DNA of 64,000 nt, from positions 800,001 to 864,000 of the forward strand of contig OY776510.1 of NCBI GenBank assembly GCA_963675665.1, written 5' to 3'. Source of the DNA: Spirochaetia bacterium. GTDB lineage: Bacteria > Spirochaetota > Spirochaetia > UBA9216. Below the pieces are notes generated by a model. It saw only the letters and a program-made list of their open reading frames with translations. It did no database searches and was not told where the DNA came from. Position 1 is the first letter of the stretch; every line of letters starts with the position of its first letter. Positions 1 through 19,088 of this stretch are shown here, piece after piece. Made by a program: the position numbers and the translations under genes.

Positions 1-150
1 TTTCTTTTTTAGTCTCGTCATATTTCAAGCTTTTTCTGTAAGAGATACTGAGCGTATCCGGTTTATTATCCGTATGAAAATATATTGAAAGTATTGCTAT
101 CATATTCTCGGACCCGGAAAAAAAAGGACAATCCGTATGGACATGTATCT

Positions 151-1065
151 TCAATATTCTTTCACCTTTTTTAATTTAGAATCTATAATATTATTTAACC
201 CGTCAGAAAGATCAATTTTTGGTTTCCAGGCAAAATCCTTTAAAATTCTATTACCCGATAAATTATAATTCATTACTTCACCATTTCTATATGGCAAAGC
301 TCCAATATTCAGCAAATTCCGTTTATCTAAAATCTCAGCTATATTTATAGCTATTTCTTTAATCTGGTATTGTTTGTTCGAGCAAATATTATATACCCAA
401 TGTTCCGAAAGCTCTTTCTCAATTAAAATTGATATTATATCAATTAAATCATCAATATATAGAAAATCACGCCATTGCTCACCTTTTGTCATTTTAAATT
501 CTTCATTTTTAATCAAGGTATTAATCATTTGTGGAATAAACATAGTTTCATCCTGATCCGGACCATAAACAACGGATGGTCGCAAATATAAAATAGGAAG
601 ATTATATTCACGTAAATAATAATTACATAAATTAAATAAGCATTGCTTTGAGAAAGAATAAGCATTTATTGGTTTTGTTGGAGTTTCTTCTGTGATAATA
701 CAATCTGTTCTTCCATATTCTTCTGCAGAACCTAAAACAATAATTTTCTTTGTTTTGTTATAATGTTGCATAATATCAAATAGATTAAGGGCACCAATAA
801 AATTAATATTTATAGATTCTAAAAAAACATTATAATCTACTAATCGCTTTTTTATCCCGGCAAGGTGTATTATCATATCTGGTTCTGTTTTATCTATAAT
901 TTTTTCTAATTCATTCTTATTTAATAAATCGACACAATAATGTTGCTGCTTTTCATTATCTGTTTCAATTCTATCAATCGTTATAACAGTATAATTATTA
1001 CGAAGATATTCTGCTAATTTTATTCCTATGTAGCCATTACCCCCAGTAATAAGCACTTTATTCAC
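151..1065 (-). CDS. NAD-dependent nucleotide-sugar epimerase/dehydratase (extended SDR)
   Basis: N-terminal TGGNGYIG, HLAG, YxxSK (YSFSK), VYGP and RDFLYIDD motifs. Confidence 0.9.
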   Translation of the reverse strand: MNKVLITGGNGYIGIKLAEYLRNNYTVITIDRIETDNEKQQHYCVDLLNKNELEKIIDKTEPDMIIHLAGIKKRLVDYNVFLESININFIGALNLFDIMQHYNKTKKIIVLGSAEEYGRTDCIITEETPTKPINAYSFSKQCLFNLCNYYLREYNLPILYLRPSVVYGPDQDETMFIPQMINTLIKNEEFKMTKGEQWRDFLYIDDLIDIISILIEKELSEHWVYNICSNKQYQIKEIAINIAEILDKRNLLNIGALPYRNGEVMNYNLSGNRILKDFAWKPKIDLSDGLNNIIDSKLKKVKEY

Positions 1066-2272
1066 TTATTCCTCCAGTTCCCAACATTTGCTGTTTTTTT
1101 ATAGCCAAATTAACAATAGTTATTGAAAACCAAAACAAAGGCCATGCAAAGAAATCAAAAGCCAGATTGATTATAATGACATATACTAATAAACGATAAT
1201 TATCCTTTAGAACTTTTTTAATAATATATATTAATACACCAAAATATAAAAAGCCCTGTTCTATCACCAAATTTAAAATCCCGGAGCCAAAGCCACGATC
1301 AAAATCTCCAACAAACCCGATGCCATATCCGAATAAGAAAGTTTTTAAATTCATATTTAAAACAAGTTTTATTCCTGCTATATATCTCATAATTCTATCA
1401 TTAATTGAAGAATATCTTAATAAGAGACTACTGCTTATCAACAACAACAATACTACAACTACTGTAAAAAATATTAATAATATTTTTCTTTTTAATGCTC
1501 TATCTGATCTTAAAAAGTCGATACTGTAACTGATAATAACAGAACTTATAATTGCAATAATACCTGTAAAAGAAAAAGTTAATATCACTGATGTGCATAA
1601 CATTAATATAAAGAATCTTCTCTTTCTTTTTGGGAGAATTAATGAATTACAAAATACTAAATTCAATCCCAAGAAGCTTGCAAGGATTCCCGGTTCAGTA
1701 AAAAAACCACACATTCTTGGAACCCGTAAACCTCCAAAATATTTATATATAAAATTTCCAAATATATAGTTTCCATAATATGGATATATTGAATCTTTTA
1801 TTAAAAGATGGTATTTAAACAGCGATGGCATTAAATTTACTATAAAAAAGCCTATTACTAATTGAAACATTAATATCCAAACAAAAAATATATATATTTT
1901 TTTTAAATAATAATCTGTTTCAAAGGATTGCTCTATATATTTATAAATTAATAAAAAAATTAATATTTTATTCGCTCTGGAAACAAAAGTATCAAAAGCA
2001 ATTGATACAAAAAAGATTTTAATAAATATCATTATCAAAAAGAGCAACAATAATATTTTTAATCTTTTATACAGAAAATGAACCAGAAGCAGATATAGTA
2101 CTATAATAAATTCTATACTGATACGAAATAATGGATTTATATAATTTTCAGCAAAGATATAAGGAGGATATATCACAATATAAAAAAGTAATAATAATGA
2201 AAAAAAGTAATTAAAGAACTCTTTTGATTTAAATTTTCGTTTAATTATTTCATTCTCTGCGGTTGAACTCAT
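1058..2272 (-). CDS. putative O-antigen/polysaccharide polymerase (Wzy-like)
   Basis: Many hydrophobic segments, R..GFFTEP motif, LFGYGIG loop; located in a glycan locus. Confidence 0.65.
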   Translation of the reverse strand: MSSTAENEIIKRKFKSKEFFNYFFSLLLLFYIVIYPPYIFAENYINPLFRISIEFIIVLYLLLVHFLYKRLKILLLLFLIMIFIKIFFVSIAFDTFVSRANKILIFLLIYKYIEQSFETDYYLKKIYIFFVWILMFQLVIGFFIVNLMPSLFKYHLLIKDSIYPYYGNYIFGNFIYKYFGGLRVPRMCGFFTEPGILASFLGLNLVFCNSLILPKRKRRFFILMLCTSVILTFSFTGIIAIISSVIISYSIDFLRSDRALKRKILLIFFTVVVVLLLLISSSLLLRYSSINDRIMRYIAGIKLVLNMNLKTFLFGYGIGFVGDFDRGFGSGILNLVIEQGFLYFGVLIYIIKKVLKDNYRLLVYVIIINLAFDFFAWPLFWFSITIVNLAIKKQQMLGTGGISE

Positions 2273-2276
2273 TATA

Positions 2277-4034
2277 TTAAGTTCCTATAAATAGTTCATC
2301 TTTATTGATTTCATTAAGATTACCATTTTTAATTTCATAGATATATTCACAGTTTCGTAAAGTAGAAACTCTATGCGCAACAATTATAATTGTCTTCTTA
2401 TTCATAAGAAAATCAATCGATTGAGAAATTTCCATTTCTGTTTTGGAATCCAATGCAGACGTAGCCTCATCAAACACCAATATCTCAGGGTTCCTATATA
2501 ACGCACGAGCAATACCTATTCTTTGTCTTTGCCCTCCTGATAGCCTAGTTCCCCGATCTCCTATCTTAGTATTTAGACCATCTGGTAAACTCTTTATTAA
2601 ATCATCCAATCTGGCCATCTTTATTACATTCTCTATTTGCTCCTGGTCAATATCACTCTCTTCAATCCCAAAAGCAATATTTGATTTTATACTGTCATCT
2701 GTTAAATAAATATCTTGGGGAACGAACCCTAATATTTTCATCCAGGAATCATGATGTTCCAGAGTACTGTATCCATCAATTAAAATATCACCAGAGGTTG
2801 GATATAATAAGCCAAGAATAATATTCATAAATGTTGTCTTTCCTGAACCAGAAGGGCCAATGAACCCTATTGCCGTGTTACGTTTAATCTTCAGATTAAC
2901 ATTATTTAATACAATATCTCCTTCATGTTTTGGATAATAAAAATCAAGATTCTTGAAATATATTTCTTTTAAATTACCAAAATCAACATTTTTATTTTCC
3001 AATTGTCTAGATATTTTATAATCTTCTAAATTATTAAACGCTTTATAAACGGTATCCAGTGCTACTTTTGAATATCTTATCTGAATAATACCTGCCATCA
3101 AACGATTAATTGCCGGCATTACCTTAAACATTGCCGCACCATACAAGGCTAAAATAGGAAAAAATGTGGTAAAATCTTTATTCCTTGCTATAATTATCAG
3201 AATAAAAACCATCATTACAATGATTGCACTACTTTCAATTATCAATTTTGGTAATTTTCCAACTATATCATTGTAAACAGAACTTTCTCTTAGTTTTTTA
3301 TAACTTTTTCTGCTTTTATTTAAAAAATAACTATACCTGTTCAATATTTTTAAATCTTTAATTCCCCCAATGCCCTGATTTATCCACTTTAATGTTTCGG
3401 ATTCATTTTCTTGCCTTATCTTACCAACTTCAGTTAAACGCTTTCTGATCTTTCTATAAAAAACAAAATTGATAAATCCGAGGATGCCAATAATTGTTAA
3501 CGTCCCTACAGGTTCAGTATATATTAATAACGTAAAAATTAATAATAAAAGAACTCCATCAGTTAGAACCAGAACTAGACAAGTAATAATTCGCTGAAAA
3601 ATAATCGGGATCTCGGTTTTTATATTTCTAACAATAATTGAAGGGTTTTCATTTAGAAAAAAGTAATAATCAGCTTTTAGATAACTATAAAACATTGATA
3701 CTGATAAATTTTCTATACCTCGATAATAGAAATTGTTCTGAAATAGCATAATCAATATTTGTAAAATCGTTTTAATTAAAATAAAAATAATTACAGCTAT
3801 ACATATTACTAACATTTTTTGAGAGAATGTGCTGGTGTTTATTAAAATAAAAAATTGATTCAACAATACATTTTCTTTTAGAATTTCCGGCTGAGTTAAA
3901 ACTTGAAAAATTGGCATAACACCTGCCACCAACAACAACTCTAAAATACTATAAAGAATTGATGTTAATACAAGAGGAATAGTACCTTTAATTTTATCTG
4001 ATTTAACCAGGATATATTTCAGTTTATGGAACAT
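2277..4034 (-). CDS. ABC transporter permease/ATPase, MsbA/PglK-like glycan flippase
   Basis: N-terminal TM domain, Walker A GPSGSGKT, LSGGQRQR, DEATSALD, AHR. Confidence 0.9.
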   Translation of the reverse strand: MFHKLKYILVKSDKIKGTIPLVLTSILYSILELLLVAGVMPIFQVLTQPEILKENVLLNQFFILINTSTFSQKMLVICIAVIIFILIKTILQILIMLFQNNFYYRGIENLSVSMFYSYLKADYYFFLNENPSIIVRNIKTEIPIIFQRIITCLVLVLTDGVLLLLIFTLLIYTEPVGTLTIIGILGFINFVFYRKIRKRLTEVGKIRQENESETLKWINQGIGGIKDLKILNRYSYFLNKSRKSYKKLRESSVYNDIVGKLPKLIIESSAIIVMMVFILIIIARNKDFTTFFPILALYGAAMFKVMPAINRLMAGIIQIRYSKVALDTVYKAFNNLEDYKISRQLENKNVDFGNLKEIYFKNLDFYYPKHEGDIVLNNVNLKIKRNTAIGFIGPSGSGKTTFMNIILGLLYPTSGDILIDGYSTLEHHDSWMKILGFVPQDIYLTDDSIKSNIAFGIEESDIDQEQIENVIKMARLDDLIKSLPDGLNTKIGDRGTRLSGGQRQRIGIARALYRNPEILVFDEATSALDSKTEMEISQSIDFLMNKKTIIIVAHRVSTLRNCEYIYEIKNGNLNEINKDELFIGT

Positions 4035-4067
4035 TTATTTATCCTTAATCATATTAATTTTAACACT

Positions 4068-5336
4068 TTATTTTTCAAAAAAATAATCCTTAATCAAATC
4101 CGGTTTAAACTCTCGCCCCATATAACAATCGAGAAAAGCCTCCGAATCAATATGTAAATTCCCTTTTAAAACTTCATATAATTCACTTTCACTAAAAGTT
4201 GTTATTATGTTTTTATCAGATCCATCAAAAGGTGGTACAATTTTATAATTAAATAAATCATATCCCTTTTTACTACCATGAGGCTCAAAAACAATATAAT
4301 TCTTTCCAACAAGAAGGGTATTAAGAATTACAGTACTTGCAGGACCTATAACAATAGACGAATTATTTAACGATGTTTCTAAATTTAAATTATCAAAAGA
4401 ATAAAATTTTGTATCAATAACTCTCTTATACCATGCAATACTTTCTGAAGGATGCAATCTTAATATCGCACTTTTAACGCCTGCTTTTTTCAATGCGTTC
4501 TTTACAAGTTCTGTATATAAATAACTATTAATACAATGATCAATATTGTTTATTGTACTATCACTTATTGCTCCTGCAGCTACTTTCGTGACGACAAGAA
4601 CATTGCCTGATTCCATTTTAGCATTTTGTTTCTCTCGATTAATCTTAATCCTATCATTTATGGCAGGATGTCCAGTAACAATTATTTTATCACATGCAAC
4701 TCCTGCATCAATATAATTCTTTTTGATACTTTCACCCCAGACAAATAATTTATCCGCTCTATTGTCATCAATATTGTTATATCTTGCAGGGAGGCCATGT
4801 AAAAAAACTGCATTTGGTCTTTCTAATTCTGTAAAAATTTCAATGGATTTTTTCTCAAAAAAAGGAAGATCATATGGAACCAATAAAGCTTTAACATTTT
4901 GTTTATAATAACTATATAAAAAATCATAAATTCGATTTTTTAATAAAAGAAAATCTTCCGAAAAAAAATAATTAATATTATTATTGTTTAAGAAGCTTTT
5001 TAACTTTCTTAAGGATAGATATTTATCATCATACTGCCACGACTCCCAAATCGGTCTTTTAATTATTACACCCTCAAAACAATTAATATTTGATAAATCA
5101 ATATAGCTGTTTGATTGAATAACTTTACTTGTATATATAGGAACTTTTTTAGGATATAATGATAATGTATTTTTTATTACTAATTTTATATGATTCTTAA
5201 TTTTATTATGTATCGGGCGCTTAAAATAATCTCCCGATTGTATAAATTTTCTCGATATTTCATAAGAAAAATCCTTTAACTCTGTTCTCTCTGTATATAG
5301 AGCCTTTAAAGATTCGTTCATTTTATATTTTTCCAT
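4068..5336 (-). CDS. hypothetical protein, putative GT-B nonulosonate transferase
   Basis: HG, VWG, TGHP, RLHP and ST motifs resembling CDP-glycerol/sialyl-transferase-like GT-B proteins; directly follows pseI. Confidence 0.45.
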   Translation of the reverse strand: MEKYKMNESLKALYTERTELKDFSYEISRKFIQSGDYFKRPIHNKIKNHIKLVIKNTLSLYPKKVPIYTSKVIQSNSYIDLSNINCFEGVIIKRPIWESWQYDDKYLSLRKLKSFLNNNNINYFFSEDFLLLKNRIYDFLYSYYKQNVKALLVPYDLPFFEKKSIEIFTELERPNAVFLHGLPARYNNIDDNRADKLFVWGESIKKNYIDAGVACDKIIVTGHPAINDRIKINREKQNAKMESGNVLVVTKVAAGAISDSTINNIDHCINSYLYTELVKNALKKAGVKSAILRLHPSESIAWYKRVIDTKFYSFDNLNLETSLNNSSIVIGPASTVILNTLLVGKNYIVFEPHGSKKGYDLFNYKIVPPFDGSDKNIITTFSESELYEVLKGNLHIDSEAFLDCYMGREFKPDLIKDYFFEK

Positions 5337-6340
5337 TGTAAAGGACTTCCTTTTTTTAAATCACATTCAGCAGTTTTCCCTAAAATCCTTAACATGTGTT
5401 TTGGGTTTAAACCATCACCAGGTCTAATTGATCTAATATTTGTTTCGTTAAATTTATCTCCCTTTTTTATATCCTCTGTTACGAAAAGAGATCTTCTAAA
5501 CTGTCGATTTTTCTTCTTTTCATTATCCAAGCTATAAGATACACTTCCTATTGCCTTTTCTACATTACGAATAGATTCAACCATCTGCTTAAACTGTACA
5601 GGCTCAATAGAAAATTCGGAATCAACACCTCCATTATTACGATCAAGTATAAAATGTTTTTCTATCACCTGGGCACCCATTGCAACAGCTGCAATAGCAA
5701 CATCATTTACTAAAGAATGGTCAGATAATCCTACTTTTACACCAAAAGTCTCCATCATATTTACCATAGTCTTCAGATTAGCATCCGCTATTGGCGCAGG
5801 GTAACTTGAAGTACATTTTAATAATGTTATATCGTTATTGCCAACTTTTCTGCAAGCTTCGACAGCTTTTTGTATTTCACCTATTGTTGCTATTCCTGTC
5901 GACATAATCATAGGCTTTCCCTTCAAGGCTGTATATTCAATAAGAGGTATATCTCCAATCTCAAAAGATGCAATTTTATATGCAGGCATATCCAGTGATT
6001 CTAAAAAATCTACTGCTGTCTTATCGAAAGGCGAGGAAAAACAAATAAGATCTATACTTTCTGCATATTCCTTCAAAGATTCATGCCATTCCCATGGGGT
6101 ATAAGCTTCACTATATAATTTATATAAAGTAGTTCCATCCCACAAAGTGCCATGCTTAATTTGAAAGTATTCATTATCACAGTCAAGAGTTATAGTATCG
6201 GCAGTATATGTCTGGAGTTTTACAGCATCTGCACCAGCTTCTTTCATTGCACATATAGTTTCAATTGCTAATTTATAATCATGTGCATGGTTTGCAGAAA
6301 GTTCTGCAATTATTAACACAGAATTATTTTCTTTTTTCAT
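5318..6340 (-). CDS. pseI: pseudaminic acid synthase
   Basis: IIAELSANH, KLQTYTADTIT, YKIASFE, KCTSSYPAP, GLSDH, IEKHF and SAF tail; start placed at the ATG (6340) behind an AGGAG RBS. Confidence 0.93.
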   Translation of the reverse strand: MKKENNSVLIIAELSANHAHDYKLAIETICAMKEAGADAVKLQTYTADTITLDCDNEYFQIKHGTLWDGTTLYKLYSEAYTPWEWHESLKEYAESIDLICFSSPFDKTAVDFLESLDMPAYKIASFEIGDIPLIEYTALKGKPMIMSTGIATIGEIQKAVEACRKVGNNDITLLKCTSSYPAPIADANLKTMVNMMETFGVKVGLSDHSLVNDVAIAAVAMGAQVIEKHFILDRNNGGVDSEFSIEPVQFKQMVESIRNVEKAIGSVSYSLDNEKKKNRQFRRSLFVTEDIKKGDKFNETNIRSIRPGDGLNPKHMLRILGKTAECDLKKGSPLQWKNIK

Positions 6341-6350
6341 ATACTCTCCT

Positions 6351-8639
6351 TTATGAGCGTTTATCATAATACCAAACCTGCATAAATCCATCTTTATCAA
6401 CAATTGTACTTTCAGGAAGTTCCCAGTATGGGTTCCATTTAATTCTATCATCATATCGATAAGAAGTTTGTAACAAGATTCGACTATCTTCTCTTTTAAT
6501 TATACTTTTTTCATATAATGTTATTTTACCGATATCAGTCATTAACGCTAATTGAGGTTTTGCTCTTCCAGAAAGATATCCTGATGTTGTTAATTGTTTT
6601 ACTAATGATAAACTTTCATCGATTGTTGTTCTAAAATGCTCAGAACCTTTAATTGGAACACAGTGAAAAAGATAATGATTCTCTATTCCGAGATACCTCA
6701 TTTCATCACATACGTTTATTAATTCCTCTACAGAATTATTCACATCCTTTAATAAAACAGTCTGATTATAAATATTCACATATTCTCTAATTTTTAAAAA
6801 TGCTTCTTTTACCTCAGGAAAGAGTTCAACTGAATGATTTATTTGCGTTGCCATTTCAATCTGAAATGAATATTTTCTTTTAAAAAGGGAAAGAATGTTA
6901 TCATTAATTGCTGAGGGTTGATGAATTGGTATTCTGCTTGCGATTCTAACAATTTTTATATTATGAGGATGTCGTTCCAATTCATCTAAAAATCGAATTA
7001 TTTTCGAGGGTACAAGCAGAGGATCTCCTCCTGTAATTAATAATTCCCTAACATCTTCTAATTCTGGTAATTTGCTGATACTTCTAGCAATTCTGTTTAA
7101 ATCATCTTGCGATAACGCGAAAGGCGAATAGAATTGCCGAAGGCAATGTCTACAATTTGCCAGACATTGAAGCATTGGTTCAATAATCAATACTCTTCGA
7201 TATAATCGCTCCAATCCTAATAATCTTTTATTCTCAAACTCAAATAAGGAAGAGGCTTCATAATGTTTCAACATTGATTTTTCATTTCTTCTCTGATCTG
7301 GCGTTGTATTAATATAAAATTGATTTTTTAAAACTCTTTGTACTGTCGAATCAGAATTATTTTCTGCGTGCTTTAATTTATTTTGTACAAAAGGACTTAC
7401 CCTAAAACCAGATGTACCCTTTGCCCTCTTTTTAGAGTCTACTACAACCGTAACAATATCTTCAACTGTATTTATAAAATCTACAGCTTCATTCAAATCA
7501 TTAAATTCAAATGCCACAACACCTAAAGTATTGTCTCCTATAGAAAACTCATTTACTTCATCACCTACTTCAGCAATTTGATGTTCAAAAACAATCTTAT
7601 CAATATATTCAGATTTTACTTCATATCCGTTAAACAAACCTTCTTGGTAACTATTTAAAATGTATGACACTATTGGCTTTCGCGAATATTCTTTTTTAAC
7701 TAAATAACATTCTCCAAAGGCTGAATAAATCGAAGCTTCCGTCATATCAAATCCGGACGATAACTGTATCATATTAGGTACAAATATTCCTCCGTTACGT
7801 AGAGCAATGTCAATAATATAAATATCTTCACCAACTTTAAAGCCATCAAAATTGATACATCCACTATTTAAATTTAATTCAGTAATAATACTTTGAAACT
7901 GTTCATCCAAGTTTCTTTCTACTTCTTCATTAAAGACACCAGGAAAAATTTCGCCTACTGGCACATTAAATTTTGAATTTTTTTTAAAATAATTATGGCC
8001 ATAATAAGAAAATGCAATTTTACCATTTTGAAAGAATACATCTCCATCTAATTCCAACATTGTTTTATTTAATTTTTTCTCAATTATAATCTCTTTTGAC
8101 ATTGAATTATCAATTGCATATTTTAATGCTTTATTTAATTTATCTTGACAATCAATAATAGATTGACCTCTTGATCCTCCAGAATCAACAGGTTTAATAA
8201 TAATCTCTCCAGTCTTTTCCAAAAGATCATAAATATCTTTGACATTGGAATCTTCATTATAAACAATAAATTCTGGATAAGGTAATCCTATCCTTTTCTG
8301 CATATTTCTAAATTTGCCTTTGTCTTGTAATACAATAGCAGCTTCAATCGGATTTCCTGGTAACTGTAGCTTTTCAGCAACAAATGATACTGTTTCTACA
8401 GCCGCATTCGCTGCATATGTCATTATTGCATCAATCTTGTATTCGATAGCTGCCTCTAAAACTTTCTGCTTTTCTATAGTAGAAAGTTTTAAAGATAAAT
8501 CACTATAGCAATGTCCGATCTCTGTTAAATCTTTACTTACCGTTATAACTATGCAACCCAACTCTTTTGCTTTTTTTATTGCAGGTAACTGATAAGGAGA
8601 TGCTCCTAAAAACATTAATCTTTTAAATTTAAACTTCAC
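6351..8639 (-). CDS. ATP-grasp ligase fused to a KamA-family radical SAM 2,3-aminomutase-like domain
   Basis: N-half: LGASPYQLPAIKKAK, DKGKFR, IKPVDSGGSRG, IIEK. C-half: CLANCRHC, LITGGDPL, QINH, NQTVLL, EHFRT, GKI. GTG start with AAGGAG. Confidence 0.85.
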   Translation of the reverse strand: MKFKFKRLMFLGASPYQLPAIKKAKELGCIVITVSKDLTEIGHCYSDLSLKLSTIEKQKVLEAAIEYKIDAIMTYAANAAVETVSFVAEKLQLPGNPIEAAIVLQDKGKFRNMQKRIGLPYPEFIVYNEDSNVKDIYDLLEKTGEIIIKPVDSGGSRGQSIIDCQDKLNKALKYAIDNSMSKEIIIEKKLNKTMLELDGDVFFQNGKIAFSYYGHNYFKKNSKFNVPVGEIFPGVFNEEVERNLDEQFQSIITELNLNSGCINFDGFKVGEDIYIIDIALRNGGIFVPNMIQLSSGFDMTEASIYSAFGECYLVKKEYSRKPIVSYILNSYQEGLFNGYEVKSEYIDKIVFEHQIAEVGDEVNEFSIGDNTLGVVAFEFNDLNEAVDFINTVEDIVTVVVDSKKRAKGTSGFRVSPFVQNKLKHAENNSDSTVQRVLKNQFYINTTPDQRRNEKSMLKHYEASSLFEFENKRLLGLERLYRRVLIIEPMLQCLANCRHCLRQFYSPFALSQDDLNRIARSISKLPELEDVRELLITGGDPLLVPSKIIRFLDELERHPHNIKIVRIASRIPIHQPSAINDNILSLFKRKYSFQIEMATQINHSVELFPEVKEAFLKIREYVNIYNQTVLLKDVNNSVEELINVCDEMRYLGIENHYLFHCVPIKGSEHFRTTIDESLSLVKQLTTSGYLSGRAKPQLALMTDIGKITLYEKSIIKREDSRILLQTSYRYDDRIKWNPYWELPESTIVDKDGFMQVWYYDKRS

Positions 8640-8651
8640 GTATTACTCCTT

Positions 8652-9407
8652 TTATTCTATTATCTTTTTTAATAAAATAATATCTTTTTCGAAATCATCT
8701 AGATTCTCCATACTCTTTTTTCTTGTTTCAAGACTAATCTTTTTTTCTATATTGATAATTTTAAATATTTTTCTAAAATTTAAATTACCTTCTCCAATAT
8801 TTAAATGATCGTCATAAGGAGTCCTGGTATCGGTATCTGATAAATGGTACATCTCTGGAGCTAAAATGTTAAATTCTTTTATATAATTAAAATAATCTTT
8901 ATCATAAAAAATTGCGGCTGCTATCGCATGACCAATATCAAGAACAAATCCTACATTTGCTTCTTCAATAATAAATTTTATCTCATTTGGTTTTGCACCA
9001 ATAAAACTTAAATCCTCTCCAAAAACAATCGCCGGAACATTCTCTATTAATACTCGTTCGTCATTAAATAATAACAATTGTCGAACAGTTTCATCAATAT
9101 CACCATTGGCTTCACTATGTAAAATTATGTAGCGAGCATTTAGATTATCTGTAAAGAATCTAATCTCTTTTAGTATTGAACTATTATAATTTTCAAGATC
9201 TCTATCTGATAGATTAAAACCATATTCCAAATGAGTACCATGTACAATAATGGGGATATTAGTCATTTTCCATAAATTAATAGTCTCAAGACTATTTGGT
9301 ACATAATAAATTTCTAGAAAATTAAAAATTTTTTTTTCATATAAATTTATTATACAATTATAATAATTTATATTTGTAGACCATATTTTTAATCCAAATT
9401 CAGACAT
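8652..9407 (-). CDS. xylose-isomerase/AP-endonuclease-2-like TIM-barrel metalloenzyme
   Basis: IENVP, LDIGH, HLSD, DDHL and LET metal-binding pattern. Confidence 0.75.
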   Translation of the reverse strand: MSEFGLKIWSTNINYYNCIINLYEKKIFNFLEIYYVPNSLETINLWKMTNIPIIVHGTHLEYGFNLSDRDLENYNSSILKEIRFFTDNLNARYIILHSEANGDIDETVRQLLLFNDERVLIENVPAIVFGEDLSFIGAKPNEIKFIIEEANVGFVLDIGHAIAAAIFYDKDYFNYIKEFNILAPEMYHLSDTDTRTPYDDHLNIGEGNLNFRKIFKIINIEKKISLETRKKSMENLDDFEKDIILLKKIIE

Positions 9408-10072
9408 CTAAATAAAACCTCAGCTATAGCCCAATCCTCTAGCGTATCAATATCTCGGACTTTTGTTTCTGGCATTATATATCCATATGCTTTATCTGAT
9501 AATACTGTATCATTTTCTATAAAAGCTGAAATATTAAAAAAATAAAATAGTCCTGCATCGTGATACATTTCTTCTAGATCTTGAGATCTTAAATTGGCAT
9601 TTCTTTCATCATAAAATTTCACAATATTGTTCTTCAATTGAAATGCGCGCTGAATCGGAAAAGGATACTTTACGACAGGAATTACACTGTCATATTCTTC
9701 CAACTTCAAATATGAATCATTTAATATGACAGAATTGATAAATGGTGCTGTAGGTAAAAGACAACAGCAATATTTAAATTGTCTATTTTCATTATAATAA
9801 TATTTTATGACTTCATGTAGAACATCTTCTATAGTAGCAGAATCGTTACTATTAATTTTATTTCTTAGATAGGGAACACTTGCTCCATAACTTTTAGCAA
9901 TCTTAGAAATTTCTAACGTGTCTGTTGAAACCATAACCTCATCAAAAATATTCGAATTTAAAGCTGCTTCAATAGAATATGAAATAATTGGTCTTCCACA
10001 GAATTCCTTTATGTTTTTTTTAGGAATTCGTTTACTCCCACCTCTTGCAGGAATTATACAAATATTACTCAT
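9389..10072 (-). CDS. pseF: pseudaminic acid cytidylyltransferase (copy 2)
   Basis: IIPARGGSKRIPKKNIK, PTAPF, RSQDL, HDAG, DIDT. Confidence 0.9.
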   Translation of the reverse strand: MSNICIIPARGGSKRIPKKNIKEFCGRPIISYSIEAALNSNIFDEVMVSTDTLEISKIAKSYGASVPYLRNKINSNDSATIEDVLHEVIKYYYNENRQFKYCCCLLPTAPFINSVILNDSYLKLEEYDSVIPVVKYPFPIQRAFQLKNNIVKFYDERNANLRSQDLEEMYHDAGLFYFFNISAFIENDTVLSDKAYGYIMPETKVRDIDTLEDWAIAEVLFRCLNLD

Positions 10073-10081
10073 TATAACTGC

Positions 10082-10180
10082 CTATTTAGAATTAATTATA
10101 GTGCTTTTATTGTTTTCGCTTATTTTATCTATGTCCCTTTCTGATAGCTCTGAGAACAAAGACAATGATAAAGCTTGTTT
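10082..10180 (-). pseudogene. C-terminal remnant of a second PseC/DegT aminotransferase
   Basis: Reads KQALSLSLFSELSERDIDKISE..., matching the PseC tail ATLSLPLYPDLIKKEQDLVID; lies directly upstream of pseF copy 2. Confidence 0.6.
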
Positions 10181-10181
10181 T

Positions 10182-10979
10182 TTAGCCTCTAAGATATTTT
10201 TTAAAATCTTCTACAGAGATAGCATTATAGATAGGACTTTTATATCCTTCTGGAATAACATTAATAATTTGTACTCCGTTATTTTCACTTATTTCTTTCA
10301 ATATATTATGTTCATTTTCTGGTTGTTTTATTTCTAAATTTAATACTCTTTTCCTAAATTCTTCTGACTGATAAGGCTCATAAAAATGAAACCACTGATA
10401 TGGTTGAAGAGTATATCCTGCACCAATTAAAAATATTTTATCAAATCCCATATATATAGCAAGGCAGAGAAGGAAATATACTGTTCCTTTCATAAAAGGG
10501 CTTCTTTTACAAAAATCTATTTTTGTTTTTACTGTTATTGGATCTCTACTAGAAGCAAAGAAATACTTCTTAACATTTTTAAGTTCTTTATCATTTCTAA
10601 TATAAAAATAATTTGTATGATTTAATAAAAGTATAGTATCGTTAGAGCAGGCGTGTAATTTTTTTATCATAGTTTTTGAATGCTCTGAAAGATTTGTATA
10701 TCTCATCGTTTTATGAGCATTTTCAATGGAAGAATAGAACAAGGGCTTCATATTCTTAATGTCTTTATGTCGATAAAAATGATTACAAATAAAAGTCTTT
10801 TTATCTTTAAGTAAACTAAGATCGATATCATTTACAACGGGACCTGTTAAAAAAATATAACATTCCTGGTTAATAAATTTATTTTTTAAATTTATATTAT
10901 CTTTTAAAAGAACATAAATAAAAGGAAATGATACAAAATAATATAAATGCTTAATTATTGAAATAACAACTGATCTCAT
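10182..10979 (-). CDS. DUF115/Maf-like putative nonulosonate transferase
   Basis: CYIFLTGP, TFICNHF, LAIYMGFDKIFLIG and HFYE motifs. Confidence 0.7.
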   Translation of the reverse strand: MRSVVISIIKHLYYFVSFPFIYVLLKDNINLKNKFINQECYIFLTGPVVNDIDLSLLKDKKTFICNHFYRHKDIKNMKPLFYSSIENAHKTMRYTNLSEHSKTMIKKLHACSNDTILLLNHTNYFYIRNDKELKNVKKYFFASSRDPITVKTKIDFCKRSPFMKGTVYFLLCLAIYMGFDKIFLIGAGYTLQPYQWFHFYEPYQSEEFRKRVLNLEIKQPENEHNILKEISENNGVQIINVIPEGYKSPIYNAISVEDFKKYLRG

Positions 10980-10995
10980 ATAATCCTATATATCC

Positions 10996-11199
10996 TTAAT
11001 CTGTAGATATTGAAAACAATTCATTGTCGCAATTATTTGGTATGGTATCTGCTATATAGTTTTGTCTTTTAACTGAATCCTCACTACTGTCTATAATAGC
11101 TCTAATACATTCTTTCGCTATATTTATATCTTGATTATAATTAGCTTTAATTCCCGTTATTATAAATTTTTTATCCATCTTCTGTTTCCTTAAATTCAA
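10996..11199 (-). pseudogene. decayed N-terminal fragment of pseI
   Basis: FIITGIKANYNQDINIAKECI...SVKRQNYIADTIPNNCDNELF aligns with the intact PseI N-terminus (IIAELSANHAHD...AVKLQTYTADTITLDCDNEYF). Confidence 0.8.
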
Positions 11200-11233
11200 A
11201 TAGGTATAAAACTATATATTAATTAACTCCCTA

Positions 11234-11650
11234 TTAAATAGGTGGCAAAACAGTAGCATCACCTTCTATAACTATATCGCCGTTAGATTTTCTACAAGTT
11301 GTTTTTAATTTAACAATATTTTTTTCCTGAAATATTTCAATCACTTCAACTTCTGCCCTGATTGTATCACCAATAAAAACAGGTGCTGTAAATTTCAAAT
11401 TCTGTTCATAATATAATGTTCCAATACCTGGTAGTTTTGTTCCTATCACAGTTGAGATTAAACTAGCTGTTAATAATCCATGAGCAATACGGTTTTTAAA
11501 TCTTGATTCCTTACCAATCTCATCGTTAATATGGATCGGATTAAAATCTCCTGATATTCCCGAAAATAAACATATATCTGTTTCCGTTATTGTTTTTCCG
11601 AAAGAGGCTTTATCTCCAATTCTTAATTCATTTATTTTTTTTCCTGTCAT
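11234..11650 (-). CDS. MaoC-family (R)-specific enoyl-CoA hydratase
   Basis: SGDFNPIH, RIAHG, PVFIGDT. Confidence 0.9.
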   Translation of the reverse strand: MTGKKINELRIGDKASFGKTITETDICLFSGISGDFNPIHINDEIGKESRFKNRIAHGLLTASLISTVIGTKLPGIGTLYYEQNLKFTAPVFIGDTIRAEVEVIEIFQEKNIVKLKTTCRKSNGDIVIEGDATVLPPI

Positions 11651-11652
11651 AA

Positions 11653-12192
11653 TTATATAATTCCTATTTTAATATATTCCAGTTTCTTCTTCTTTTCTTC
11701 CCACTCAGCTTTTAGAATTCCCATTCTTACAACATCGAAATATTCATTATTTTTCTTGATTTGTTGCCTAAGAGTCCCTTCGACTGATGCTCCAAAATGT
11801 TCATGGATTTTTACAACTTTCTCATTAAATGATAAAACTTCGCAACACACTTTATTCATATTTAATTTATCAAAACAAAAATCATAATTATTGCATTCTA
11901 TTATCTTACCAACTCCTTTCCCTTGATAACCTCTCTCTGCAATATAATATGCCCAAAAACATGTTTCATTTTTTCTGTCTATAAAATTAACAGAATATAA
12001 CCCAATTGGATTTTTATCATACTCAATTATCCGATATATATTATTATCATCTTTCATACGTGAAAACCATTTCTTTTGATTTTCTAACGTTATATCAGGA
12101 TCAGTATACATATATTTTGTAACCTCTGGCAACATTCGCCAATTCATAATCATTTCTAAATCTGTATCAAAAATTTTTCGGAGTTTAACCAT
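11653..12192 (-). CDS. pseH: UDP-4-amino-4,6-dideoxy-AltNAc N-acyltransferase (GNAT)
   Basis: WRMLPEVTKYMYT, CEVLSFN; typical PseH size, inside the pse cluster. Confidence 0.8.
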   Translation of the reverse strand: MVKLRKIFDTDLEMIMNWRMLPEVTKYMYTDPDITLENQKKWFSRMKDDNNIYRIIEYDKNPIGLYSVNFIDRKNETCFWAYYIAERGYQGKGVGKIIECNNYDFCFDKLNMNKVCCEVLSFNEKVVKIHEHFGASVEGTLRQQIKKNNEYFDVVRMGILKAEWEEKKKKLEYIKIGII

Positions 12193-12199
12193 TCTCCAA

Positions 12200-12620
12200 T
12201 CTCCTTAAATATTTATAATCTAATTTAAAATATAATTATTTGAATTCACTATCCTTTTTGGTCTCAATACTTAATAATTTCTTTCCTGAAATTTTCAAAC
12301 GTTTTTAAAATATTGGGAATTTTCATTATCACAATGTAAAGTACTGCTCAGTTCGAAATTGTAAATATCATCGGAGAATTGATATATTACTAGTAATAAA
12401 TAATTAAATTTACTCAGCAATTCATCCTTATCATACTCCGAAATATTTGCGGTATATATTATTTATCCAATATCAAAATAAAACCACAAGAGATTTTATC
12501 TAAATTTTTTCAGATTTTCGGAAATATCATATGAATTAAAAAAATCCCGATTGACTAATTCAGCAGTTGACTCTATATTATTGTTATTCTTTGGCTATAT
12601 CTTTAATCTAAATAAAATAA
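12200..12620 (-). pseudogene. ORF-less gap at the usual pseG position, possibly a decayed pseG
   Basis: About 430 bp with no ORF between pseF and pseH; only weak fragments (NSYDISENLKK, ILILDK). Confidence 0.25.
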
Positions 12621-12625
12621 GAAAT

Positions 12626-13315
12626 TTAACTATTGAAATTACTCTGAAATTTCAGTTCTGCAAGAGTCCAATCTACATCTTTATCAATATCCTGAACCTC
12701 TAAAGAATCGTATTTAATATACGTTGTTTTGGGAACAATAAGTTTTTTATAATGTAATAACGATACAGTTCTAATAAAATAAAATTGACCTGCATCATGA
12801 TAGCAAGGTTCAAGATCTTGGGATCGTATTGTATAATTCTCCGGCCACTTCATTTGTATGAAACAGCCTTCTGAAATAAATGCTTTCTGAATAGGATACT
12901 CAAATTCAACAATAGGAATTATCGCATTAGCTGAAATTTTCATTAATTTATAATAAGCTTTATTTAATTTATCAGGAGTAATAAATGGTGCTGTCGGTAA
13001 AACACATGAAATAATATCGTATTCTATTCCTCTTAACATATATGAATTTATAACTTCAATCAGAACCTCCGCTAATCCTGCTGTATCATTCGAATTACAA
13101 TGACTTCTTAAAAAAGGAATTTTTGCACCGTATTTTCTTGAAATTCTTGCAATTTCTTCATCATCCGTTGAAACCATAATCTCATCAAAAATATTTGATC
13201 TTATTGCAGCTTCAATTGAATATGCTATTATTGGTTTTCCTAAAAAATCTTTTATATTCTTTCTGGGAATTCTTTTACTACCGCCTCGAGCAGGAATTAC
13301 ACAAAGTTTTTTCAT
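12626..13315 (-). CDS. pseF: pseudaminic acid cytidylyltransferase (copy 1)
   Basis: VIPARGGSKRIPRKNIK, PTAPF, RSQDL, HDAGQFY, QDID. Confidence 0.92.
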   Translation of the reverse strand: MKKLCVIPARGGSKRIPRKNIKDFLGKPIIAYSIEAAIRSNIFDEIMVSTDDEEIARISRKYGAKIPFLRSHCNSNDTAGLAEVLIEVINSYMLRGIEYDIISCVLPTAPFITPDKLNKAYYKLMKISANAIIPIVEFEYPIQKAFISEGCFIQMKWPENYTIRSQDLEPCYHDAGQFYFIRTVSLLHYKKLIVPKTTYIKYDSLEVQDIDKDVDWTLAELKFQSNFNS

Positions 13316-14464
13316 TTATACCCTACATATCGAAATGATTTTGTCGATAACTAAATCCTGTTCTTTTTTAATCAAATCAGGATATAACGGTAAACTTAGT
13401 GTCGCTTCATAATAATCTCTTGCATTTGGAGTATCATCAATTGTTGTCTTATAATTTTTCATATAATAAGGCTGAGAATTTACAGGGATATAATGAACTT
13501 GAGTTCCTATTCCTTCTTCAATTAGTTTAGTCATAAACTCAGAACGAGTAATATTCAATTCCTTAAAATTTATTTGAACAACATAAAGATGAAAACAGCT
13601 ATCTAGGAAATTCTCCTCATAGGGACAAATTATTGAACTAATAGAGGAAAATGCATTATTATAACGTCTTACTATTTCACGCCTTTTCTTTTTAAAAGAA
13701 TCAAGTTTATGTAATTGATTAATCCCGAGTGCTGCCTGCAACTCAGTCATCCGATAGTTACGACCAAGAATCTTCATTTCATAATACCAAGGCCCTGGAT
13801 TTTTTTCTAATAGTTCTGGTTTCTTTGTTATTCCATGATTTCTTAAAAGCAATAGTTGTTCATATAACATTTCATCATTTGTAGTAATAGCTCCACCTTC
13901 TGCTGTCGTTATTGTTTTCACAGGATGAAATGAGAAAACCGTCATGTCTGAATATTTACAACTTCCAACTCGATCACCGTCTTTATAGTTTGAACCAATT
14001 GCGTGCGAAGCATCCTCAATAATTCGTAAATTATTACCTTCTGTAATTTTTTTAAGGATTGGCATATTACAAGGTTGTCCTGCAAAATGAACAGGTATTA
14101 GCAACCTTGTTTTTATACTTATTTTGGATTTAACTGATTCTGGAGAAATATTATATGTTTTTTTATCAATATCTGCAAAAACAGGAACAATATCATTATA
14201 AATCATAGAGTTCGATGTCGCAACAAACGTATTTGGTGTTGTGATCCCTTCACAACCTTTTTCCAACATTAAAGCAGCAACAGAAATATCCAGAGCTGCT
14301 GTTCCATTTGAAACAACCACACAATATTTTGATCCGCAATACTGAGCAATTTTTTTTTCAAATTCTTCCACAACCGGCCCTTGTGTTAAATATGCTGCCT
14401 TTAAAATTTCTGTTACAGATTCAATATCTTGTTTATCAATTGACTGTTTTCCATATGAAATCAT
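13316..14464 (-). CDS. pseC: UDP-4-amino-4,6-dideoxy-AltNAc transaminase
   Basis: ISYGKQSI, LTQGP, EDASHA, FSFHPVKTITTAEGG, QVHYIPV. Confidence 0.93.
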   Translation of the reverse strand: MISYGKQSIDKQDIESVTEILKAAYLTQGPVVEEFEKKIAQYCGSKYCVVVSNGTAALDISVAALMLEKGCEGITTPNTFVATSNSMIYNDIVPVFADIDKKTYNISPESVKSKISIKTRLLIPVHFAGQPCNMPILKKITEGNNLRIIEDASHAIGSNYKDGDRVGSCKYSDMTVFSFHPVKTITTAEGGAITTNDEMLYEQLLLLRNHGITKKPELLEKNPGPWYYEMKILGRNYRMTELQAALGINQLHKLDSFKKKRREIVRRYNNAFSSISSIICPYEENFLDSCFHLYVVQINFKELNITRSEFMTKLIEEGIGTQVHYIPVNSQPYYMKNYKTTIDDTPNARDYYEATLSLPLYPDLIKKEQDLVIDKIISICRV

Positions 14465-14466
14465 AT

Positions 14467-15465
14467 TCAAACCTTAACCATTCTTTCCAATTCATTATCT
14501 ATCCAGACTTTTAACTCTTCTTGTGTCATCCACTTTTTATTATTACTGCTAGTATAAGAAAATCCTTCCGGAACTCTTTGTCCGTCTTTAATCCTATTTG
14601 CATCCTCTGACCACTTATGAATTGATGGTAATATTTTATAATATCCTTCATACTCATAAGTAAACATTGAATCTTCAGTACTAATCATTATTTCATGTAA
14701 CTTTTCACCAGGACGAATTCCAACATACTGGATTTCAGCTTCTGGAGCTATTGTCTTGGCTAAATCAATTACTTTCATTGAAGGAATTTTCTTTACATAG
14801 ATTTCTCCACCTTCGGCATCTTTAAAAGCTTTCCAGACCAGTTCCACACCTTGATCCAATGTAATCATAAATCTTGTCATTCTTTTATCCGTTACCGGTA
14901 AAATTCCTGTGTTTTTTAATTTCATAAAAAATGGTATTACCGATCCGCGACTTCCCATTACATTACCATAACGAACAACAGAAAATCTTGTACCGTGTTC
15001 ACCTGAATATGAATTTCCAGCAACAAAAAGTTTATCTGAAGCTAATTTCGTTGCTCCATATAAGTTAATCGGATTGCATGCCTTATCAGTACTTAATGCT
15101 ACAACTCTCTTAATATTTTTATCTATACATGCGTCTATTAAATTCATTGCACCAGTTATATTTGTTTTTATACACTCAAAAGGATTATATTCTGCTGTTG
15201 GTACTATTTTAGTTGCGGCGGCATGCACTACATAATCAACACCATCTAATGCCCGATATAATCTATCTTTATCACGTATATCACCAATAAAAAATCTTAA
15301 TCGTTTATCATTATTAAATCGTGCATTCATATTCCATTGTTTCATTTCATCTCTAGAATAAATAATAATCTTCTTTGGATTATATCTCTCCAATGTCATT
15401 TCAATAAATTTATGCCCGAAAGACCCTGTCCCTCCAGTAATTAGAATAGTTGAATTTGTTAACAT
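14467..15465 (-). CDS. pseB: UDP-GlcNAc 4,6-dehydratase (inverting)
   Basis: ITGGTGSFG, SRDEMKQ, VPTAEYNP, STDKA, YGATK, RYGNVMGSRGS, RPGEKLHE; GGAG RBS before ATG 15465. Confidence 0.95.
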   Translation of the reverse strand: MLTNSTILITGGTGSFGHKFIEMTLERYNPKKIIIYSRDEMKQWNMNARFNNDKRLRFFIGDIRDKDRLYRALDGVDYVVHAAATKIVPTAEYNPFECIKTNITGAMNLIDACIDKNIKRVVALSTDKACNPINLYGATKLASDKLFVAGNSYSGEHGTRFSVVRYGNVMGSRGSVIPFFMKLKNTGILPVTDKRMTRFMITLDQGVELVWKAFKDAEGGEIYVKKIPSMKVIDLAKTIAPEAEIQYVGIRPGEKLHEIMISTEDSMFTYEYEGYYKILPSIHKWSEDANRIKDGQRVPEGFSYTSSNNKKWMTQEELKVWIDNELERMVKV

Positions 15466-15491
15466 ACTGTTCTCCATAAACATCAGTTTCA

Positions 15492-15590
15492 TTATTTTCT
15501 AAAAAATTTATTAATTAATAATTCTAATAAAAACCCTACGACCAATGATATAATAATAATAAAGATTGTTATATCAAAAAAAGCTTCCAT
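15492..15590 (-). CDS. putative 32-aa single-pass membrane peptide
   Basis: MEAFFDITIFIIIISLVVGFLLELLINKFFRK*: one hydrophobic helix with a basic tail; below the ORF-track cutoff. Confidence 0.35.
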   Translation of the reverse strand: MEAFFDITIFIIIISLVVGFLLELLINKFFRK

Positions 15591-15604
15591 AAATATAACC
15601 TATG

Positions 15605-16000
15605 TTACCCTTCCCATTTAAATAAAACAGAGGTATACAATAAACCTCAGCCAAAACCTACAAAAACAATTTTATCACCTTTTTTAGTCTTCTACTTCCA
15701 AAAAGTGTAATAATGACTGTGTACCTGAAGTATTTGTGTATTGTTACAAGATTCGTTGAATTTCAGTATAGCATGATGGTTTACTGAATTCGTAAACAAA
15801 TATAACATTTCGCAATGCGTCATAAGTAATATATATTTCATGATCATTGTTTGCCTAATGCTCTAAAACAATTCGCCATTCTTTAACCCTATTTTGTTAT
15901 AACTCCATTTATCTGAAGTGTCCAGAGAATGCTTCAATTCCTTAATTCTGATAACTAATATTGATATATAGAATCCAGTTCAAATAATGCCAATATTTAA
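15605..16000 (-). pseudogene. fabH (3-oxoacyl-ACP synthase III) relic with large internal deletion
   Basis: N-part NIGII*TGFY...LDTSDKWSYNKIG, middle YTNTSG, C-part KKGDKIVFVGFG*GLLYTSVLFKW*. Confidence 0.75.
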
Positions 16001-16228
16001 AAAGAAACTCCTAAGGTCTCTTACGAGCACAACAAGATTACTCTCACTCAAATATACAATATGAAGCTTTTTGGATTACAAATAAATATTTCTTTGACAA
16101 CCGCCTGACCAATTGTCCCGGCACCACCGGACAATAAAGGAGGAGTTATTTACTTCATCATCCAAAAAATAAAATTATTTTTAATGTCCGCATTAAGGAG
16201 TGGAGATCTTCTTCCAATTATCTTCAAA
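16001..16228 (-). pseudogene. frameshifted 5' fragment of a UDP-GlcNAc 4,6-dehydratase (polysaccharide biosynthesis protein)
   Basis: Across frameshifts reads LKIIGRRSPLLNADI / DEVNNSSFIV / GGAGTIGQAVVKEIFICNPK / LHIVYLSESNLVVLVRDLRS. Confidence 0.7.
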
Positions 16229-19043: not shown

Positions 19044-19088
19044 AACTATAATATACAACCATTATTGCTCTTTTCATAGTTGCTTCTG

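Follow-up and report, generated by a model that had tools for sequence, protein, structure and literature searches.

The stretch of DNA analysed here (in the following called the window) comprises 64,000 nucleotides of a Spirochaetia bacterium, positions 800,001 to 864,000 of contig OY776510.1 (assembly GCA_963675665.1). Within a locus for the synthesis of pseudaminic acid (Pse) it encodes a protein of 762 amino acids (aa), in which an ATP-grasp ligase domain is fused to a KamA-type aminomutase domain. Taken together, the domains and their surroundings slightly favour the view that this protein is a bifunctional Pse-tailoring enzyme, which would make a beta-amino acid and N-acylate a Pse precursor with it. 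The architecture and motifs of the fusion, its coupling to the neighbouring genes, its conservation and its genomic association are observed and are described in the next two sections.

The fused gene and its two domains

The gene and its parts are the following.
6351..8639, minus strand: fused ATP-grasp::KamA gene, 762 aa, GTG start, stop codon at 6351-6353
7440..8639, minus strand: ATP-grasp domain similar to L-amino-acid ligases, residues 1-400, assigned by PDB sequence/profile and Foldseek matches
6354..7403, minus strand: KamA-type aminomutase domain of the radical S-adenosylmethionine (SAM)/pyridoxal phosphate (PLP) kind, residues about 413-762, assigned by TIGR00238 and 2A5H

The 762 codons contain zero internal stops on the minus strand; the plus-strand reading of 6351..8639 has many. 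An AAGGAG sequence precedes the GTG start by 6 nucleotides, and the stop codon of the gene before it, which encodes a TIM-barrel protein, lies 12 nucleotides upstream of the GTG. At the other end the stop codon (TAA) is followed by AGGAG and then by the ATG of pseI at 6340, 10 nucleotides past the stop. Ribosome-binding sites and tight spacing at both ends thus indicate that the genes for the TIM barrel, the fusion and PseI are translationally coupled. An AlphaFold2 model of the fusion has a mean predicted local distance difference test score (pLDDT) of 85.7, which is low only at residues 404-412, 444-463 (the linker) and 493-495 (the cluster loop). Because the open reading frame (ORF) is uninterrupted and full-length homologues are colinear with it across the linker, the gene is by all appearances a genuine fusion and no assembly artefact, and a stop codon or a misassembly at the domain junction is ruled out on the same grounds.

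A first-pass annotation made from the bare sequence had described an uninterrupted ORF of 762 aa, an ATP-grasp module of about 400 aa, a KamA-like module with named motifs and a position between pseF2/TIM-barrel and pseI. All of this is borne out, with the ORF sitting on the minus strand: the two modules by the database matches, fold and motifs given below, the motifs being all found in the translation, and the position by the family scores of the flanking genes.

Residues 4-398 align end to end with the uncharacterised ATP-grasp structure 4DIM, with E 1.3e-14 in the PDB sequence search and E 7.5e-45 when a profile of 39 homologues is used. For the L-amino acid ligase BL00235 (3VOT) the values are E 3.9e-5 by sequence and E 3.1e-20 by the same profile, and the R-x-G-G stretch of the N-terminal domain aligns with that of 3VOT. 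The Foldseek template modelling (TM) scores on the target are 0.84 for 3VOT_B, 0.81 for 4DIM, 0.80 for PurT and 0.78 for RizA; an ATP-grasp fold is present over about 400 residues, and the pLDDT is mostly above 80 for residues 1-400. The residues K149, D152, E187, E196, L197, D265, R281, G283 and G284 are invariant in 39 full-length fusions, and the conserved residues of the domain presumably bind ATP and Mg. None of the ATP-grasp families of Pfam reaches its gathering score, the best being ATPgrasp_ST with 23.8 bits against 31.4, and the assignment therefore rests on the PDB profile and fold matches. An Atlas search with this domain returned generic names only.

The C-terminal domain matches the KamA family model TIGR00238 of NCBIfam at residues 403-698 (E 1.8e-40, 138.9 bits; the cut-off of 199.2 is not reached). 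The structure 2A5H of lysine 2,3-aminomutase (LAM) aligns to residues 473-722 with E 1.3e-24, or E 3.4e-38 with the profile of 39 homologues. The motifs CLANCRHC (492-499), GGDPL (537-541), NQTVLL (625-630), HFRT (668-671) and GK (704-705) are invariant among 39 full-length homologues. The CxxxCxxC cysteines C492, C496 and C499, likewise invariant in 39 fusions, occur in 61 of 62 sequences of the subfamily and in all 11 LAM-like sequences used for comparison. R501 (kept in 61/62) and K705 (60/62) align to R134 and K337 of LAM, which from the structural literature on that enzyme we take to be the arginine binding the alpha-carboxylate and the lysine binding PLP. Cluster cysteines, R501, GGD (GGDP, 537-540) and K705 are thus each kept in 60-62 of the 62 subfamily sequences. 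The Foldseek top matches listed are ATP-grasp enzymes throughout and 2A5H is not among them, so that the KamA assignment rests on sequence.

The KamA domain scores far below the NCBIfam equivalog cut-offs of the lysine, glutamate, arginine and EpmB enzymes (AblA 113.2 versus 525.4, EpmB 123.2 versus 369.3, glutamate aminomutase TIGR04368 131.2 versus 650), and the LAM_C domain (PF12544) gives no match in the fusion. With all family scores below curated cut-offs both domains have to be called divergent, and the KamA domain appears as a divergent branch of its family. In the column of Cys268, presumably a Zn ligand in LAM, the window protein has Ser636. The columns of LAM Asp293 and Asp330, residues which we assume to hold the epsilon-ammonium group of lysine, contain V38/I21 of 62 sequences (position 661) and M48/L12 of 62 (position 700), respectively. 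In 9 of the 11 LAM-like sequences the Asp293 column is Lys; Lys and Asn at the two specificity columns are presumably the pattern of glutamate 2,3-aminomutase. As the residues of both specificities are replaced, the domain is neither a typical lysine nor a typical glutamate aminomutase, and its predicted substrate pocket is of neither type, the columns excluding these two patterns only. A cationic substrate may be conceivable, as an Asp (D702) stands two residues after the Asp330 column in 56/62 sequences. R692 and K694 (58/62 each) and H655 (62/62) are specific to the subfamily.

A word-indexed search retrieved 88 proteins; 56 of them, counting the one from the window, align over 97% of the query or more. 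The 55 other full-length homologues have 753-999 aa and 41-66% identity (65% for P0003, from an Oceanispirochaeta isolate), and they are labelled 'hypothetical', 'lysine 2,3-aminomutase' or 'ATP-grasp domain-containing', with no functional name among the labels. The closest eight are colinear through the linker, where the stretch AKGT..G(F/I/M)R(V/I)S(P/S)F is conserved. An exhaustive search gave 7031 matches at E <= 1e-3 and 306 at E <= 1e-30. Clustered at 50%, they include no more than two full-length representatives, so that the fused proteins make up a small family nested within two large ones. In a quick maximum likelihood tree of the KamA domain (69 rows; 4 rows shorter than 300 aa were dropped) the subfamily splits from the LAM- and glutamate-aminomutase-like sequences with support 100, and the eight fused rows form a single clade, also with support 100. 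This clade covers at least seven phyla (Saganbacteria, Kiritimatiellota, Ignavibacteriota, Planctomycetota, Nitrospirota, Verrucomicrobiota, a deltaproteobacterium), which indicates one fusion event and its later spread by transfer. The fused form was absent from a plasmid search, where none of the 30 records spans 80% or more of the query.

Both domain families also occur in other combinations. An LpxD-like LbH::KamA fusion (P0092, 651 aa), an ArnA/Fmt-like formyltransferase::ATP-grasp::KamA fusion (P0012, 999 aa) and a Wzx flippase fused to an ATP-grasp of the N-terminal domain family (P0149, 903 aa) were found. Three proteins with two-stretch matches (P0095, P0107, P0181), considered as KamA::ATP-grasp fusions of the reverse order, are in fact tandem double ATP-grasp proteins. 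The Brachyspira hyodysenteriae plasmid pBhyoB78 (L079, 5035-7268) encodes in a sugar locus a stand-alone ATP-grasp with 29% identity to the N-terminal domain, which adjoins a radical SAM/SPASM gene, a DegT aminotransferase and an acetyltransferase.

The pseudaminic acid locus and the neighbourhoods of related genes

Contexts of the fused form outside the window come from seven fused loci in reference genomes, and pseI adjoins the fusion in four of them (L001, L002, L005, L032). The order in L001 is PseB, PseC, PseF, TIM barrel, fusion, PseI, and in L032 it is PseB, PseC, Pse-associated methylase, cytidylyltransferase, methylase, WbqC, PseG, fusion, PseI. L002 has PseG, fusion and PseI, and L005 PseI beside the fusion. 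No N-acetyltransferase of the GNAT type was found in L001, L002 and L032, and in these three loci the fusion stands in the usual position of pseH, among genes that follow the six canonical pathway steps. This is the main reason why the 4-amino group of the PseC product is favoured as acceptor. Directly after the fusion L005 holds (2755-5271) WbuX, HisH and a WbuZ/HisF-like gene, a set which forms acetamidino groups, and the sugar of that locus may also bear such a group.

The related KamA genes were surveyed with one genome per species: 601 stretches matched, 556 were confirmed as relatives, and the best 80 were kept, giving 78 loci. Of these, 66 belong to the KamA subfamily of the fusion and 12 to more distant KamA proteins (the outgroup); the genome of the window lies outside the set. 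Neighbours were annotated by local clustering, Pfam and NCBIfam, and partners were counted within 3.5 kb of the KamA gene.
23/66 loci: PaaK-like CoA ligase together with an LpxD/NeuD-type LbH acyltransferase
4/66 loci: one only of PaaK-like ligase or LbH
7/66 loci: fused ATP-grasp
3/66 loci (L007, L029, L040): separate KamA gene followed by an ATP-grasp gene, the opposite order to the fusion
1/66 loci (L059): weak, distant ATP-grasp match
3/66 loci, including a Pelagibacteraceae genome: AAC(3)-like N-acyltransferase together with an amino-acid adenylation enzyme (TIGR01733 325.7 bits, cut-off 317.4)
4/66 loci: AMP-binding enzyme alone
3/66 loci (Streptomyces L013, L014, L026): PGM1-like peptide-ligase ATP-grasp
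18/66 loci: no recognisable partner

The subfamily thus has four types of carboxylate-activating partners, namely ATP-grasp, PaaK-like ligase with LbH, adenylation enzyme with AAC(3)-like transferase, and PGM1-like ATP-grasp. From their recurrence we conclude that the product of the KamA clade is handed to a carboxylate activator and mostly then to a sugar N-acylating enzyme. At least one PseB, PseC, PseI or PseF homologue is present in 35 of the 66 subfamily loci and in 0/12 of the outgroup, and a NeuB/PseI homologue in 22/66 compared to 0/12. The KamA module is also present in Pelagibacteraceae (genome L058) and Nitrosopumilus (genome L036). Five loci (L046, L048, L055, L057, L058) have a peptidase-like DUF4910/DUF2172 protein in the vicinity of KamA, a family for which PMC4000134 proposes a role in modified-sugar synthesis.

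In the window itself the fusion belongs to a block of 14 genes from 151 to 15492, all on the minus strand. Its neighbours are listed in the order of transcription.
14467..15492, minus strand: PseB (TIGR03589 550 bits, cut-off 407.75)
13316..14470, minus strand: PseC, source of the UDP-4-amino sugar proposed as acceptor (TIGR03588 468.5 bits, cut-off 423.5)
12626..13315, minus strand: PseF copy 1 (TIGR03584 258.5 bits, cut-off 205.7)
11653..12192, minus strand: PseH, GNAT N-acetyltransferase (TIGR03585 115.9 bits, cut-off 93.1)
11234..11650, minus strand: MaoC-type (R)-specific enoyl-CoA hydratase (PF01575 92.1 bits)
11008..11211, minus strand: truncated remnant of a second pseI, 68 codons (tblastn with the window PseI: 40% identity, residues 27-99, E 3.7e-9)
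10182..10979, minus strand: 265-aa protein with no assigned family (weak WaaZ and MptE/Maf-like matches)
9389..10072, minus strand: PseF copy 2, CMP-pseudaminic acid synthetase (TIGR03584 283.2 bits, cut-off 205.7)
8652..9407, minus strand: xylose-isomerase-like TIM barrel, AP_endonuc_2 (PF01261 47.9 bits, cut-off 31.1)
5318..6340, minus strand: PseI, pseudaminic acid synthase (TIGR03586 506.1 bits, cut-off 340.25; ATG at 6340)
4068..5336, minus strand: 422-aa protein with no assigned family (Pfam/NCBIfam scans)
2277..4034, minus strand: PglK/MsbA-like ABC exporter (Pfam/NCBIfam scans)

PseB, PseC, PseH, PseI and both PseF copies all score above their NCBIfam equivalog cut-offs. PseH is the canonical enzyme for the N-acylation step that is proposed here for the fusion. 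The MaoC hydratase may supply a 3-hydroxyacyl-CoA donor, for example 3-hydroxybutyryl, for the PseH encoded directly upstream. The two PseF paralogues suggest that two different Pse derivatives might be CMP-activated, and the 265-aa protein is a weak lead as a candidate ulosonic-acid transferase. Judged by the pseI remnant, located after MaoC and before the 265-aa gene, the locus has been joined from two parts, one with PseB, PseC, PseF copy 1, PseH, MaoC and the remnant, the other with the 265-aa gene, PseF copy 2, TIM barrel, fusion and PseI. The G+C content of the sugar locus is 27-31% and that of the remainder of the window (from about 16 kb) mostly 38-49%. By this contrast the sugar locus is a foreign, horizontally acquired island, which continues beyond the left end of the window.

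For PseG no NCBIfam match was found in the 14 locus proteins, and tblastn of four PseG sequences against positions 1-16500 gave a best E of 0.83. The 422-aa gene (4068-5336) was considered as PseG and rejected, being unrelated to it by family scans and tblastn. A TIM barrel lies directly before the fusion or pseI in three loci lacking PseG (window 8652-9407, L001:7034-7819, L018:18903-19679), six loci contain PseG without a TIM barrel, and the two were never found together. The TIM-barrel protein, which has weak matches to EndoIV and CbiR phosphodiesterase models of NCBIfam, may take the place of the UDP-sugar hydrolase PseG without being its orthologue. An Atlas search with it returned generic names, and a PDB sequence search uncharacterised proteins only.

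Proposed reaction sequence and competing explanations

For the two activities, the order in which they act, the acceptor and the product we infer the following. The KamA domain, with [4Fe-4S], SAM and PLP, would convert an alpha-amino acid by shifting its amino group from C2 to C3, an activity predicted because of its family membership. The ATP-grasp domain would activate the carboxylate of the resulting beta-amino acid as acyl phosphate, and the activated acid would then be joined to an amine of the Pse precursor. The likeliest acceptor is the 4-amino group of UDP-4-amino-4,6-dideoxy-beta-L-AltNAc, the product of PseC. The fusion would thereby do the job of PseH, transferring a beta-aminoacyl group instead of acetyl. 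The TIM barrel, as a possible stand-in for PseG, PseI and PseF copy 2 would finish and CMP-activate the Pse5Ac7(beta-aminoacyl) sugar. The canonical PseH route is probably active alongside it in the window, and such a branch would explain the two PseF genes and the mosaic locus. Two PseF copies and two acylating enzymes may well fit parallel branches from one PseC product; equally possible, PseH would cap the new free amine.

The two central claims of the first-pass annotation fared differently in their parts. That one protein makes and ligates a beta-amino acid, an activity which is predicted, is in line with the domains, the motifs and the Pse context, and comparative genomics strongly favours the underlying logic of an aminomutase product that would be carboxyl-activated and placed on an amino sugar. 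Acylation of N7 without a GNAT agrees with L001, L002 and L032, but has against it the PseH of the window and the GNAT found in L027 and L058.

In a wider reading, to which we give tentative credence, the KamA clade would be part of a widespread system supplying a beta-amino acid that is N-linked to pseudaminic or legionaminic-type and other 4-amino-6-deoxy surface sugars by at least three non-homologous ligation routes, with the fusion replacing PseH and the TIM barrel perhaps replacing PseG. The clade ranges from Omnitrophota and Nitrospirota to Pelagibacteraceae and Nitrosopumilus, and the product would be a nonulosonic acid with a free amine or a further capped beta-aminoacyl group.

Several observations weigh against the reaction sequence proposed above. 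Both domains fall below curated family cut-offs, and with the side-chain-holding residues of LAM replaced the substrate cannot be named from the columns. Pse-type genes are present in 35 of the subfamily loci and were not seen in the other 31/66; seven proteobacterial loci (L025, L030, L033, L035, L038, L045, L052) showed no glycan context. Three of the seven fused loci have no PseI homologue, namely L003, with no Pse or amino-sugar gene of these kinds, L039, with a DegT aminotransferase, and L004, a 5-kb contig with a nucleotidyltransferase and a WecF-like transferase for a 4-amino-6-deoxy sugar. A beta-aminoacyl nonulosonate was not found in the literature searched, as far as the sources were accessible. 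The window locus has, moreover, a PseH above its equivalog cut-off as well as the MaoC hydratase, a PseH-like GNAT adjoins the KamA module in L027 and L058, and a PIG-L de-N-acetylase directly precedes the PaaK-LbH-KamA module in L009, L020, L024 and L050. With PseH beside the module N7 may simply be acetylated and the beta-aminoacyl group placed elsewhere. The same activities would then be directed to another acceptor, which could be N5 after de-N-acetylation, a hydroxyl group (as ester), another amino sugar of the repeat unit or the finished Pse. PIG-L hints at N5 as a possible target in its four loci, where the N-acetyl group would be swapped for the new acyl group, and L004 and L039, holding the WecF-like transferase and DegT and not Pse genes, also speak for a different acceptor. 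We nevertheless regard this as improbable, since in L001, L002 and L032 the fusion stands between PseC/PseG and PseI with no GNAT or deacetylase found, and no PIG-L homologue was found in the window.

A reversed order, in which ligation of an alpha-amino acid to the sugar amine by the ATP-grasp domain comes first and KamA then isomerises the sugar-bound group to the beta form, could make sense of the fusion itself, which would hold the sugar-bound intermediate close to both sites, and of R692 and K694, which could bind the nucleotide diphosphate. It is quite unlikely, because the arginine equivalent to R134, kept in 61/62 sequences, suits a free carboxylate, because the adenylation enzyme or CoA ligase found as partners elsewhere need a free acid, and because, to our knowledge, the KamA enzymes characterised so far all use free amino acids. 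Slightly fainter is the chance that a free beta-amino-acid dipeptide or small metabolite (an osmolyte or antibiotic) is made and that the place in a Pse locus is incidental. The three Streptomyces loci would fit this explanation, as L014, L026 and the merged ORF of L013 have an MFS exporter after the PGM1-like peptide ligase and no sugar genes; so would the dipeptide ligases as nearest characterised ATP-grasp enzymes and the loci without a Pse gene. It is weakened by the translational coupling of TIM barrel, fusion and PseI in the window, by the same order in L001, by PseG-fusion-PseI in L002 and L032 and PseI-fusion in L005, and by partner enzymes elsewhere that are of sugar N-acyltransferase types. 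An assembly or annotation artefact or a decaying gene, finally, might be suspected from the sub-threshold scores of both domains and the mosaic locus with its pseI remnant. This is already contradicted and has practically no weight, in view of the 55 other full-length homologues with colinear linker, the invariant catalytic residues, the model confident in two domains, and the Shine-Dalgarno site and coupling to the neighbours.

Other parts of the window, relevance and known systems

Outside the sugar locus the window contains sulfate-activation genes (CysN-like, CysD, CysC; 21959-25297, minus strand) near to it and, farther away, a WecA/MraY-type initiating transferase (55075-56142, minus strand). 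Toxin-antitoxin-type genes (DUF5615 with DUF433, HEPN with nucleotidyltransferase) and a Uma2 endonuclease lie at 18448-21310 (minus strand, G+C 36-39%), and a group II intron reverse transcriptase/maturase at 26472-27827 (minus strand, TIGR04416 409.4 bits). The region 42492-51270 is the replication-origin area, where dnaA, dnaN and recF are arranged divergently from gyrA and gyrB; parA and parB lie close by.

Variation of the N-acyl groups of nonulosonic acids shapes their recognition by antibodies, phages and lectins. If the predicted tailoring is true, the beta-aminoacyl group would be a new chemical class on these sugars, possibly positively charged, and oxygen-sensitive radical-SAM chemistry would enter surface-sugar synthesis. 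With L058 (Pelagibacteraceae) and L036 (Nitrosopumilus) the module reaches abundant environmental lineages whose surface glycans are almost unknown. A single polypeptide making and installing a beta-amino acid would be a compact chemo-enzymatic tool for modified Pse sugars, and the TIM barrel, if it does replace PseG, would represent a second way to complete the Pse pathway.

The N-acyl groups so far listed (PMC8157484) are formyl, glyceryl, hydroxybutyryl, lactoyl, glutamyl and the like. In the full-text literature searched, as far as its sources were accessible, no aminomutase, ATP-grasp enzyme or beta-aminoacyl group was tied to pseudaminic or other nonulosonic acids; the ATP-grasp amidoligase survey of Iyer et al. 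2009 lies outside this coverage. Within the same limits this agrees with the earlier statement that no characterised example of the fusion exists in glycan biosynthesis. Two apparent hits proved irrelevant: the 'aminomutase' of a lipopolysaccharide locus (PMC3694923) is the unrelated glutamate-1-semialdehyde 2,1-aminomutase, and PMC3765264 has 'ATP-grasp' in its reference list only. A related case is CA_C2189 of Clostridium acetobutylicum, by annotation an 'ATP-grasp amino acyl ligase' beside a gene of the NeuB type (PMC4000134, Table 2). Like the fusion it is an ATP-grasp enzyme predicted to modify a NeuB-type sugar, but it is uncharacterised and not fused to an aminomutase, and the comparison is one by description only.

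With KamA of Clostridium subterminale (2A5H; TIGR00238) the fusion shares the CxxxCxxC and GGD motifs, the PLP lysine and the carboxylate-binding arginine. It differs from KamA/LAM by V/I for Asp293, M/L for Asp330 and Ser for Cys268, by the missing LAM_C domain and by the fused ligase. Aminomutases that feed a dedicated partner are known from EpmB/EpmA, responsible for the beta-lysylation of EF-P, and from AblA/AblB, which make N-acetyl-beta-lysine; the EpmB model matches the fusion with E 1.1e-35. The partners EpmA and AblB are a tRNA-synthetase paralogue or a GNAT, each encoded by a separate gene, with a protein lysine or the amino acid itself as target, whereas the fusion carries its partner, an ATP-grasp ligase, on the same polypeptide and lies in a glycan locus. 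The L-amino acid ligases BL00235 (3VOT), RizA (4WD3) and BacD/YwfE are, among characterised enzymes, the best matches of the N-terminal domain and have the D/E-x-x-x-R-x-G-G motif in common with it. They are, however, only 17% identical and join two free alpha-amino acids, while for the fusion a beta-amino donor and a sugar amine as acceptor are predicted.

PseH of the pathway PseBCHGIF has the same proposed substrate, the PseC product, and the same gene position (L001, L002, L032). Fold and chemistry are unrelated, since PseH uses acetyl-CoA and the fusion is predicted to use ATP via an acyl phosphate; PseH is in addition present in the window. Similar to the predicted chemical outcome are blasticidin S, in which beta-arginine made by BlsG is attached to the 4-amino group of cytosinine, and streptothricin, with beta-lysine on gulosamine. 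In these, as is predicted for the fusion, the product of a KamA-type enzyme is amide-linked to a sugar amine, and the BlsG model TIGR04468 matches the fusion with E 2.6e-35. They are, in contrast, actinomycete secondary metabolites made with other ligation machinery and not surface glycans or nonulosonic acids. N-acyl tailoring of nonulosonic acids as such is known; what is new here is the enzyme architecture and the predicted chemistry.

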